Shown here: in pieces, positions 40,394-45,720 of the stretch
How the letters are laid out: each line of letters begins with the position of its first letter
Numbering within the stretch: position 1 is the first letter of the stretch
Source: Vezdaea acicularis
Lineage: Eukaryota
Direction of reading: 5' to 3'
DNA length: 64,000 nucleotides
NCBI GenBank assembly: GCA_026025075.1
Contig: JAPEUI010000024.1
Coordinates: 124,001-188,000, forward strand
Position numbers and translations under genes: made by a program
The notes under the pieces: generated by a model
What the model was told of the DNA's origin: nothing
Seen by the model: only the letters and a program-made list of their open reading frames with translations
Databases searched by the model: none

Positions 40394-40657
40394 TCGCGTT
40401 GTCGACATCCAAGGCGCGTATCAACGCATGAACGCTGATATCAAGTATACTACGGCCATTATGTTCACACGTCATTCACGCATTCCGCAAGCTCGAAGTT
40501 GGGCGAGCTGGCCATAACGGAAACTTCAAGTTAGCCTCAGCATTCCGACAGACAGGCATTGTACCGAGAACGGAGCTCAATTATTGCTCCGCGAGACCTC
40601 GCGGTCTTTGAACGGCGCGTTTAAGGCGGTCTGTTACCTGGGGACTTCTCAACGCGC
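40394..40657. promoter_or_regulatory. MCB-like CGCG elements upstream of CDC45
   Basis: TCGCGT 40394, GCGCGT 40414, GCGCGT 40615, ACGCGC 40652. Confidence 0.45.
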
Positions 40658-40738
40658 AGCGTCGCAAGCTCCGCTGGGCCAGTCCTCGATACTGTTCAGG
40701 ACCATTTGCGGCTCTTAGGAAAGGATCCTGCGGGCGTC

Positions 40739-43475
40739 ATGTATCTGCCTCGCTCCCTCATCTCGCATTTATACCTACAACTCGTCAAGACGCACCATTC
40801 GCTTTCACCACCAGTGCTCCTGCTGGTATCACTTGAGCCAGACGCCCTCTGTGCATGTCGAATTCTTACAGCATTGTTGAAACGTGACTACATACCTCAT
40901 AAAATTCAACCTGTGTCTGGCTACAGCGACTTGAGCCGGATTGGACGAGATGTCGTCCGGCCAATGCGGAAAGACCAGGGTGGGAGTGGAGGGGTAGTTG
41001 TGTGCCTAGGAGTCGGTGGGCTCATAGATCTTTCTAGCCAGCTCGGACTAGAGGCTGAGGAAACGGCACAAGACGCAATGGGCGGGGTTGAAGTATGGCT
41101 AATCGATGCGAGAAGACCGTGGAACTTGGGAAACGTCTTTGGGGGGCGGCCCACACCGATGGTGATCTTGGAGGATGGACAGGCGGTACACGTAGAAGAG
41201 GGTATGGAACGGGCGCGGATACAACAGTCATACAAGCCTGGCCTAGGCGGCGTCATCGTCTTCGACGACGGCGATATTGACGAGGAGCTGCAGGCAGAAC
41301 GCGACGCGTATATTGGGCTCGAGCTCATGCCGGAATATGAAGATGATGGGGCTGAATCAGAAGACTCTGAAGATGAGGCCTTGACGAGTGGGGTGGCGCA
41401 AGGAGGTCGTTCAAGCAAGAAACGAAGACCTATGTCCAGTGATGAAGACAGCGACGGATATAGTGATGGAGAGCGACCTACGCGTAGGCGTAGGAGCAAT
41501 TCGGTTTGCGCAAGATTTCTCAAACTTCGTCCTTAGGCTAACATTTGGGACAGTCGCAGTCAATAGGAGTGGATAGAGAGAAGCGCTCGGGTAAAAAGCG
41601 GAAATCAGTGTCTGATGACGAAGATAGCGACGAGTATGGTGATGAGGAACGATCAAGTCGCAGGCGTCGAAGCAACTCGGTATGAAGAGGAGAGCTGTCG
41701 TTACATGCATATACTAACAAATGCAATAGTCGAATTCGATTTCTGTATCTCCGAAACCTCGAGGACGTATGTCTTTTTCTACCCCTCCACCCCGGCCTTC
41801 GTCGTCGTCGAACCCCACTTCTCCTTTTTCTCCAAAAGAACCATCTCCTCGGACTCTCCGGCGAAAATTTCTACGGCTACGACAACAGCACAAAGAGGTT
41901 CTACAAAAGTATTACTCCCTTGGTAGCAGCTACTCTGAGCCCGTATCATCCCTCATGTACTCTCTTGCGTCTGATCTTGGTCGAGAAGACAACGATATGC
42001 TGTGGCAGGCTATTGTTGGCGTTACGAGTCTAGAAATCTACGGCCGTACACTCAGTGGTGTAGGAATAGACGCAACCGCTCCTCACACTTCCAGCAATGG
42101 CTGGCAAGGCAACCGCGGCGAAAGAATACGACAGGTACTACGGGACGAAGTCCGGCGCCTGAATCCACCAGAGTTGGGGGATAATGGACGCGAAACACAT
42201 CGGAATGACACATCTGGTGTGATACCTACAACAGCCCGCTCCCCTACCGATAAAGCTATTCGCCTTTCGCCTGAACCTCGCTTCCTACTTATCCGGCACT
42301 GGTCTCTATATGACAGCATGTTACACTCCCCCTATCTAAGCGCAAAGCTGCATATCTGGAGTGATGCCGGGTTGAAGCGTCTTCACAAACTTCTCGCGAA
42401 AATGGGTGTCTCATTGGCCCAATGCAAGCAGAGTTATACGCATATGGACATGGACCTGAAAAAGGGGCTAAGGGAGAGCCTATTGAAGTATGCCCCTCTA
42501 TACGGGCTAGAAGGACTTGTCCCGCCACCACCAAGTAGAGCAGTAGGGAAAGAGGGCTGGGGCTTTGTTCGCAGCTGGGGCTGGAAAGCATGCCTCAGTG
42601 CGAACGACGTTGGTGTTATCATTGGCGCAATCCTGGAAGTTGGGAAAGCAGCCTTCTCGAAGCATGCGGATGCCAATTCATGGGCACAGAGCCAGGCAAC
42701 TGAGCTTCGAGATGAAGAAGGCATTGAGGAGAGCGAGATGTGGGTCAGCCGCTTCTTTGAGGCATATGATGCGCTAGAGAACATCGAGGCATTGAAAGCC
42801 TCTCTCCCTCTCGCACAATCACTGCATCGTGCCATCCTACGGACGGGCAGTACACTCATTACAAAGAAGCAGATCAAGGATCTTCGTGCCTTCAGATTAG
42901 CCGTCCTGAAAGACGGCCCTGACGTCGGTCTCTTCACTCACCCAGCCGCGCTCACAAAGTTAGCGCTATGGCTCGGCGAAGCGCTTGCTGAGCAAGAAAA
43001 GACGAAAAGAGGAAAGTTGGGCAAAGGCGGTCGGGCAACACCACTCGTCGTCGCCGGGCTGAACGAGAGTAGAGGCGTTTACGTTGTCGTGGGAACGGGT
43101 GGGGGTGGGGGTGTCATGGACATCGCCGCGAGGGAAGAACGTAGAAAGGAAAGGGAAGAGAAGCGAAAGAAGCGCGAGCAGAAGAAGCAAGAAAAGGAGC
43201 AACGGCGGAAAGAGCGTGAAGAGAACGGAGAAGACGAGGAGACGGAAAGCGAGGGCGAGTCCTCGGATGACGACTCCTCGGATGACGAGGAGGACGAGGC
43301 AAGACAACGAAGAGGTTACGGGAGGAATAACTTTGGTCACGCTTTTGAGGCAGTGGCGGATGAGACGAATGCTAGAATCAAGTTCGATGGCTTTGAGCAG
43401 TGTGTCATCGAGGTCAAGAAGGAGGATCTGGGTGGTTTCTTGGAGAACTTGAGCATGAAAGCTGTCATCGGGTAG
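40739..43475 (+). CDS. CDC45: DNA replication initiation factor Cdc45
   Basis: Exons 40739-41503, 41554-41679, 41730-43475. LEPDALCACRIL..IPHKIQPVSGY, IDARRPWNLGN, FLLIRHWSLYDSM, LAKMGVSL..YTHMD and RNNFGHAFE..FLENL. Confidence 0.97.
41387..41732 (+). repeat. Diverged 176-bp tandem duplication spanning a CDC45 exon end and intron
   Basis: Two 39-codon segments are 24/39 identical in amino acids without gaps. Each is followed by a 50-nt intron with CTAAC at the same offset and then TCG. Confidence 0.85.
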
Positions 43476-44449
43476 GGGCAAAGCGAGGACAATAGGCGTT
43501 TGCGTTGCGTGGTATATATGATTAATGACATGATCACATAAGGTAGTTGGGGAGACGGGAGCATAGCGTAAATAGGCTTATAGCTGAACGGACCTGCCAG
43601 ATCTTGGAATGCATACATTCATGGCTCAACATCGTAGATGGCACTTACAATCTGGTGAACAACTCTGATCTGTTCAATTCCGTTTTTTTGCAATTCAATC
43701 TCGCCCATCCTTTGCCAAAAGCTTGTATATGCTGGTTGCCTCTGTGAGCAGGCGTTGCGAACTTCTTTGAACCAAAAACATCACGTCAGCGTGGAAATGA
43801 TCGTGAACACGTTTCCTGTCTTGATATAGTGTTGAGAACACGTTCCAGCCTTGGAGTGACGGAATATCTGCCGTTCATGAATGGGGCATTCGGACAGGCT
43901 ATATAGATCTTGATGTAACACGTGATACAATCTCATGTTTCTACTCTCAAACCATCCGACTAGACCTGTTCAACTCTAGCTGAAGCGACTATACACTGTC
44001 TTTCTACGCTGCAGGTGGGGCTAAAAAATTTTGAATGTATAAAGCTTTAGAAGGAAAGAATCATAACGTCCAGTAGTCAAATTTGCCTCTTTCCGGGGGT
44101 CCCAGAAAGATTATCTCAAGACAATTCACAAAGCAAGATCAAGATTATGGACAACCCAGGTGAGCTATGAACGCTGTCCAATTAGGACTTAACGGCTCTA
44201 CTAATGCCCTAGGACAGGACTATAGTTGACGCTGAACCCGAAGGAATGCCTAATGAACGTTCAAGTTCAAGTTCGCAGAGAAGCGAAGAAGCAAGCAAGA
44301 AACGAACCCGGCAGAATGCCACGCTGACGATGTGACCTATTCTTGACATCAAGCGATGAACCATGTCCAAGGGAAATCCAAGTACCCGGCTATTGACTAA
44401 AATCCCTTCCTGAACGGGTCCAACGCTTCCTAGACAGTCCTTCAACAGA

Positions 44450-45087: not shown

Positions 45088-45404
45088 GATTGCAATCTGC
45101 CGTAGGTAGGTGTTTGGATACGGTGACTCGAGCGTCGGTATGATTTGTGTTCGTGTGTTGTGGGAAAGAGACATCACGGGATGCGTTACGATCACGCGGT
45201 GAACCACTTGATGTTAGTCTATCCCCCTTGGCAACAAAGGGGGGAAGGGGGGTTCGTGAACCTCACGTTGGCCAGGATGTCCTGGTATAAATGAAGTTTC
45301 ACAATACCCGCATAGGTATTGTATGTACCTAAAGCTTAATAAGAGATCAAGAAAAGCGCTGCTTTCCCTAGGAACCTTCATTTGCTATTGGTTCTCGCTA
45401 CAAT

Positions 45405-45720
45405 GTCTCTTCGAATGGGGAGAGAAGAGAAGAGGAAGTGCGATACGAAGCAGCAGAACTTGCTGCTACCTTTATCATTCCAGACGACCCGAGCGCAGAC
45501 GAGGAGATCTCTTCATATTGAGAGGGAAAAGAGGAGAGAGTATGATAAGAAGCAGCAAGGCATGCTTCTACTTCTATCATTCCAGATGGTCTGAACGCAG
45601 ACGGGAAGGGTCTTCTCAAATGGATAGAGAAGAGAAGAGAAAGTACGATACGAAGCAGCAGGACCTGCTTCGTTCTTTATCATTTCAGATGGTCTGAGCG
45701 CAGACGGAAAGACAGTCTCA
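45405..45720. repeat. Three degenerate ~102-bp tandem repeats
   Basis: Core AGAGAAGAGAAGAG.AAGT.CGATACGAAGCAGCAG..TTTATCATT.CAGA.G..C.GAGCGCAGACG recurs at about 45405, 45508 and 45611. Confidence 0.85.

Follow-up and report, generated by a model that had tools for sequence, protein, structure and literature searches.

An old tandem duplication in the CDC45 gene of Vezdaea acicularis copied a short intron and formed a chimeric exon

Introduction

Vezdaea acicularis is a moss-associated fungus. A stretch of 64,000 nucleotides from its genome, here called the window, contains a gene in which the end of one exon and most of the next exon look alike, and each is followed by a short intron. This locus raises the question of how the arrangement arose, how old it is, and what protein is made from it. 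An earlier reading of the letters alone (the sequence-only reading) had proposed that a 176-bp duplication copied an intron together with a segment resembling a bipartite nuclear localization signal (NLS), and that this created an in-frame cassette exon.

Results

The gene and its parts

The host gene is CDC45. Both large exons match the Pfam family PF02724, the gene product shows homology to solved Cdc45 chains, and the genome has a single CDC45 locus. All parts of the gene lie on the forward strand. Exon 1 (40739..41503) runs from the ATG to the end of the first copy of a sequence module, and the translation of its 255 codons matches PF02724 with an E value of 2.9e-52. Exon 2 (41554..41679) is 126 nt or 42 codons long and has the second copy of the module (KKRKS..RRRRSNS) inside it. 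Exon 3 (41730..43475) extends to the stop codon and has 581 codons (PF02724 E value 8.9e-167). Two introns are predicted: intron 1 (41504..41553) with donor GTTTGC, branch motif CTAAC at 41538-41542 and acceptor CAG, and intron 2 (41680..41729) with donor GTATGA, CTAAC at 41714-41718 and acceptor TAG. Both run from GT to AG and are as the sequence-only reading described them, 50 nt long and in phase 0, with CTAAC 11 nt from the end and TCG after the intron. That exon 2 can be skipped without a change of frame is also borne out by its length and by phase 0 on both sides. Intron 2 is 50 nt in the window and 51 nt in the DNA runs X1 and X3.

Removal of both introns gives a predicted product of 878 amino acids. 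The unspliced reading meets stop codons, so splicing is needed for the full protein. A public gene model, P0391, includes exon 2 and has both copies, and 853 of 878 columns match the predicted product, but this model may derive from the same assembly and is then not independent of the gene prediction in the window. A read-through protein, P0121, clusters with P0391 (source label: Vezdaea acicularis (MAG)). Since 24 residues of exon 3 are absent from P0391, the model implies a third in-frame intron of 72 nt at 41767-41838 (GTATGT..AAG). No branch motif is found in this third intron, and it is probably a prediction artefact. If it is real, the loop described below shortens from 188 to 164 residues, which is near the top of the ortholog range.

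The duplication

CDC45 holds a 176-nt head-to-tail tandem duplication, with copy A of the unit at about 41390..41565 and copy B at about 41566..41741. These ends are approximate to a few bases, and the best-scoring segment at offset 176 is 41390-41564. In the region 41387-41556, 104 of 170 positions match at offset 176, while offsets of 30-399 give a mean of 42.9 matches (sd 6.8) and the next best offset gives 62. The 39 codons at 41387-41503 align without gaps to the 39 codons at 41563-41679, and they agree at 24 of 39 amino acids and at 75 of 117 nucleotides; the amino acid identity is the one first noticed. The size proposed earlier is supported by the peak at offset 176; the proposed end at 41732 is not, since copy B ends near 41741.

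The unit amounts to 42 codons, about 38 from the end of an exon and about four from the start of the next, with the whole intron between them. In copy A, the closing 38 codons of exon 1 are followed by intron 1 and the opening four codons of exon 2; in copy B, 38 codons of exon 2 are followed by intron 2 and the opening four codons of exon 3. The duplicated segment has 114 nt before the intron and about 11 nt after it. Exon 2 is a chimera formed at the breakpoint, with about four codons from the old downstream exon and about 38 that duplicate the end of exon 1. Its first residues, SQSI, pair with SNSI at the start of exon 3. The two introns are equal in length, phase and branch position and are identical at 26 of 50 nt (52%). 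When the splice signals are set aside, only 15 of 36 intron sites are identical, so the case for homology of the introns comes mainly from their being in register with the exons on either side.

The duplication escaped exact-seed and tandem repeat finders, because its copies are too diverged. A scan of 264 kb, which is a small sample (1.4% of the genome), found eight clusters of tandem similarity, and among these eight only the CDC45 duplication has branch motifs in register. Other repeats were seen as well. Outside the window, G000:C157:94364-94660 (within L092) is a tandem repeat with a period of about 70 nt and no branch motifs in register. Within the window, 45357-45710 is a diverged tandem repeat with units of about 102 nt in about three copies (best offset 205), and no frame is open across its whole length.

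Relatives and the intron after the module

The duplicated module consists of KRKS, an acidic spacer and RRRSNS, ends at a conserved intron, and occurs in Pezizomycotina homologs. With a module profile built from 86 ortholog modules, exactly one module is found in all 104 homologs that reach the site (of 120; the other 16 are without the N-terminal part), among them a protein labelled Vezdaea aestivalis, and in all 76 metagenome loci that reach it (of 80; the other four fall short). Eight further loop-matched proteins have one module each (8/8). The module is present in 61 of 150 cluster representatives, none of which has two, and a homolog search with the loop only found no second two-copy protein among nine matches. 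The proposal of a lineage-restricted duplication agrees with these single-copy orthologs. Copy number in orthologs had been named beforehand as one point on which the proposal could fail, and two copies across the class were not seen.

Of 61 distinct loci, 49 have an intron called directly behind the module and seven have none; in the other five the call was not clear. The ortholog introns are 44-83 nt long with a median of 49 nt. Among 119 unspliced read-through proteins, 106 have Val next after the module, as a GT donor gives. The intron site is thus ancestral and 50 nt its ordinary length, with only the doubling new. The seven loci without an intron at this place (L003, L013, L037, L053, L061, L062 and L064, out of 61) have either lost the ancestral intron independently or represent spliced transcripts in the data. 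Of the two donors in the window, donor 1 is the less typical: its T at position +3 is found in only one of 49 ortholog donors at this site, whereas the intron 2 donor GTATGA is found in 7 of 49 ortholog introns. A pattern-based tally of donors in the 264 kb of genome is too noisy to rank donor 1.

One intron more than in the relatives, caused by a tandem duplication, is also what would be seen if a new intron had been created from exon sequence, as in the model of Rogers. Such an origin is highly improbable. The two introns resemble each other in 26 of 50 nt and in branch position and do not resemble the flanking exon, orthologs already carry an intron at this codon, and coding sequence was added and not left unchanged. 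The ancestral intron in 49 of the 61 loci refutes the creation of a new one. The earlier description of the event as intron gain by tandem duplication is right in that one intron was added, but the second intron is a copy of the ancestral one.

Haplotypes and the age of the duplication

Contigs from four of the five listed DNA runs (X1, X2, X3 and X5) were aligned to the gene. A contig from run X1 (study P1) covers 41209-42205 and differs from the window by 22 letters and one gap. A contig from run X5 (study P2) spans 40500-43651 at about 92% identity, and among its differences listed there is no indel in the coding part. It is only about 92% identical and yet spans both copies, so the duplication is common to a clearly diverged relative. 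The two-copy state is present in every haplotype whose contigs span the site.

These contigs bear on the possibility that the repeat is an assembly artefact or, failing that, an old feature common to the class. In its favor, the genome is probably a metagenome bin, as the matching protein is labelled MAG. An artefact does not fit the exonic parts of the copies, which are only 64% identical in DNA, or the contigs from two studies, which independently span both copies. An old feature does not fit the homologs, since two modules were found in none of those examined. The probability of either is negligible, and for an assembly artefact the spanning contigs from two studies settle the matter.

A Cdc45 tree of 39 chosen rows, made by a quick method, has a long branch of 0.68, compared to a median end branch of 0.22. 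P0090 and P0391, which are both labelled Vezdaea, have long branches and are not grouped with support in this tree. The quick tree does not single out a sister lineage, so the event can be dated only between two splits. It predates the divergence of the X5 relative and postdates that of homologs that are about 65% identical.

The window haplotype differs from the others at the start of exon 2. The sequence-only reading had pointed to tandem in-frame acceptors there, with CAG ending at 41553 and at 41559. The second in-frame CAG (41557..41559) is present in the window haplotype only. Position 41559 is G in the window and A in runs X1, X2, X3 and X5, which have the codon CAA at 41557-41559; P0121 agrees. 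As the outgroup, X5 reads A at this position, which makes the G of the window, and with it the tandem acceptor, a derived allele of the window haplotype. The same haplotype has two derived amino acid changes in copy 2. Alleles private to the window cluster at 41381-41755, where 10 of 19 listed sites fall in 13% of the gene (binomial p 4e-5), although introns and disordered loops evolve fast. At six of the 10 private-allele sites, among the sites listed, the other haplotypes share the base of the paralogous copy.

Selection on the two copies

Both copies are under protein-level constraint. Comparison of the copies over 42 codons gives a pS of 0.80, a pN of 0.21 and a ratio of 0.26 (bootstrap 0.14-0.43). 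This pS is beyond the limit of correction, so pN/pS and a simulation were used in place of the dN/dS that had been suggested for this locus. Between the copies 27 of 42 residues are identical, an identity slightly inflated because the segment was picked by similarity; 15 of the codons for these residues have changed, and there is no indel. Ortholog pairs have a pN near 0 when they are close and a median of 0.25 when they are saturated, though they are not matched in age to the two copies. In simulations with a simple codon model at six divergences, a fully neutral copy has a joint P of at most 0.005 at all six. A half-relaxed copy (omega of 0.5 with 0.1) has a joint P of up to 0.048 and is only marginally disfavored, and an omega of 0.1-0.2 on both copies fits the observed pattern. 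The ratio of 0.26 and the rejection of a neutral copy support the earlier suggestion that amino acids were conserved despite synonymous change and that both copies are under selection. The duplication is old. Recent gene conversion would not be expected to leave synonymous sites saturated.

Constraint is uneven between the copies. Among 217 distinct ortholog modules, K follows KR in 216 and S or T comes next in 205. Copy 2 has KRKS and copy 1 has KRRP, from which both the K and the S or T are absent, showing that the near-invariant KRKS is kept in exon 2 and not in copy 1. Copy 1 retains RRRRSNS exactly, and its drift is in the first cluster. The two copies score 29.8 and 42.3 bits on the ortholog profile, and 1 and 6 of 104 held-out homologs, respectively, score as low.

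Alternatively, the loop could be dispensable and the duplication a nearly neutral passenger in it, with one copy at work and the other held by frame and amino acid composition only. The corresponding yeast loop is described as dispensable (PMC6435160), the near-invariant KRKS was lost from copy 1, the half-relaxed model is merely marginally disfavored, and derived changes are concentrated here, with 13% of the gene holding 10 of the 19 listed sites. A passenger is nevertheless very unlikely, given the 27 of 42 identical residues with 15 codons changed, synonymous sites saturated and no indel, and given that the simulation rejects a fully neutral copy.

The loop and its motifs

The duplicated modules are predicted to lie in a disordered loop. 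In the model of P0391, pLDDT is below 50 at residues 206-229 and 231-304, and these residues cover both copies. The loop is bordered on one side by the conserved DDG segment and on the other by the helix that precedes the YY motif. It has 188 residues with two copies and 146 in the skipped form, while in 72 homologs it has 126-163 residues with a median of 150.

A monopartite NLS pattern, K[K/R]X[K/R], is matched in sequence once per copy, by KKRR at residue 227 and KKRK at residue 269. RRxS, presumably a site for basophilic kinases, also occurs once per copy. The bipartite consensus is [K/R][K/R]X10-12[K/R]3/5 (PMC3858281). Neither copy matches it when read from its first cluster, where the spacer is 18 residues, and no match lies within the module in 83 homologs. 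Under a permissive pattern the bipartite consensus is found across the intron 1 junction (RR-X10-12-REKRS) and across the intron 2 junction (RR-X11-12-KPRGR). The same junction match occurs in only 22 of 83 homologs, and a junction-spanning bipartite NLS is a weak lead.

The intrinsically disordered acidic loop of Saccharomyces cerevisiae Cdc45 is at the same position in the protein, and the loop here is predicted to be disordered. According to PMC6435160, the yeast loop comprises residues 169-229 with the NLS at 210-229, and residues 169-209 can be deleted with viability kept. The two loops differ in the NLS, because the later part of the yeast signal, residues 217-229, corresponds in the alignment to a helix that exon 3 encodes beyond the duplicated unit; yeast residues 205-216 are unaligned. 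Since neither copy by itself matches the consensus and this part of the yeast NLS aligns outside the unit, the idea that a bipartite-NLS-like segment was duplicated is weakened. The loops differ also in that the yeast loop is reported to bind Rad53 via TxxD motifs (PMC6375734), and no TxxD motif is present in residues 197-344 of the window protein. In the literature searched, no functional test of the Pezizomycotina Cdc45 loop module was found.

Inclusion or skipping of exon 2

Exon 2 is probably included constitutively for the most part, judging from its sequence and that of its relatives. It is exon 2 and not copy 1 that retains KRKS, and exon 2 is under constraint, both of which favor inclusion. 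Copy 1 is the end of exon 1, so the copies cannot be mutually exclusive, and no in-frame consensus donor that would remove copy 1 was found. Several features count against the overall reading of two retained modules with exon 2 mainly included. RRRRSNS is intact in copy 1; a redundant copy would not have to preserve it, but a skipped isoform would need it. The two-copy loop of 188 residues exceeds that of all 72 homologs, while the skipped loop of 146 is of usual length. Both copies are low on the ortholog profile, and the window haplotype has two derived changes in copy 2.

Exon 2 might instead be a functional cassette, so that inclusion would give two modules and skipping (41503 to 41730) would give one module in a loop of ancestral length, close to the median of 150. 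The 126-nt exon between phase 0 introns would permit this, RRRRSNS is kept in copy 1, and the skipped junction still matches the bipartite consensus. However, an in-frame length would be forced on any surviving duplication in an essential gene and is then no sign of skipping. The skipped form would be without KRKS, although KRK is present in 216 of 217 ortholog modules, and both introns are 50 nt long, each with its own CTAAC. In fungi, skipped exons are given as 3% of alternative splicing events (PMC3925392), and skipping is said to accompany longer flanking introns (PMC6142364). Skipping also needs donor 1, the less typical donor, and failure of this donor should lead to a retained intron, as the account of fungal splicing in PMC3925392 suggests. 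A functional cassette is therefore unlikely. A more specific form, in which exon 2 would be a regulated cassette in an essential replication factor, inclusion would supply KRKS and a new junction-spanning bipartite NLS, and skipping would give a one-module loop of ancestral length, seems decidedly unlikely. If true, it would be a clean two-copy case of a duplication creating functional exon skipping in a short-intron fungus, and a natural test of the function of the Pezizomycotina loop motif. Isoforms with one or two NLS modules, which the sequence-only reading had envisaged, do not appear to be the likeliest outcome.

Discussion

Taken as a whole, the locus is best explained by an old, lineage-restricted duplication after which both introns are removed independently and a mainly two-module Cdc45 is made, and this explanation is a likely one. 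The 176-nt head-to-tail duplication had its breakpoints in the two exons flanking the ancestral 50-nt CDC45 intron and may have arisen through slippage or unequal crossing-over. Because it copied 126 nt of coding sequence, the reading frame was preserved. CDC45 thereby acquired one more copy of the intron as well as a chimeric exon in the middle. The two short introns are most likely spliced out independently of each other, which would yield mainly the 878-amino-acid Cdc45 with two basic-acidic-basic modules in its predicted disordered loop. Copy 2 has kept the ancestral KRKS, while copy 1 has kept RP..RRRSNS but drifted in its first cluster. The module may have a role in nuclear import or phosphorylation.

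The duplication is an old and retained multiplication of an intron within a core single-copy gene, whereas the fungal cases described so far are mostly recent. It draws attention to a strongly conserved loop motif in the Cdc45 of filamentous ascomycetes, for which the two diverged copies are a natural comparison, and it could mark relationships within the genus. Regulation of exon 2, if true, would be an uncommon example of functional skipping in fungi, in the replication machinery. As known from DNA, the duplication leaves general views unchanged. No prior report of it was found in the literature searched, which has most subscription journals outside it.

Duplications of this kind can be compared with three known systems. 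In the model of Rogers, tandem duplication of an AGGT proto-splice site yields intron gain (PMC3443670, PMC2891723). Tandem duplication raises the intron count in both cases, but in that model the added intron is made out of exon sequence and its splice sites are new, while in CDC45 an existing intron was copied and coding sequence was added. Simple duplications of existing introns are omitted from the table of gains in PMC3443670.

Closer to CDC45 is the repeat in the Cryptococcus gene CNN00420, which is described as exon ends plus a full-length intron (about 107 nt), with extra copies adding introns (Sharpton et al. 2008, PMC2395259). The repeat unit is of the same kind as in CDC45. The Cryptococcus repeat is reported as recent, multi-copy and polymorphic in copy number, whereas CDC45 has two diverged copies in all haplotypes that span the site.

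Same-gene intron duplications (SGD) account for 82 introns in 24 fungal species according to Collemare et al. 2013 (PMC3609843), and half of these introns arose by segmental duplication. In these, as in CDC45, an intron was duplicated in its own gene with exon sequence on each side, and CDC45 shares with them two homologous introns, exon sequence on both sides, and single-copy relatives with a single intron. SGD introns, as defined in that report, are near-identical and were found by BlastN, and in this CDC45 departs from them, its introns being 52% identical. Near-identity bears on the age of a duplication and not on its mechanism, and an old case like that of CDC45 would probably escape a BlastN-type search. 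A further difference is that the host here is a core replication gene. Overall, the architecture is already known in fungi, and what sets the CDC45 duplication apart is mainly the gene that hosts it and how old it is.
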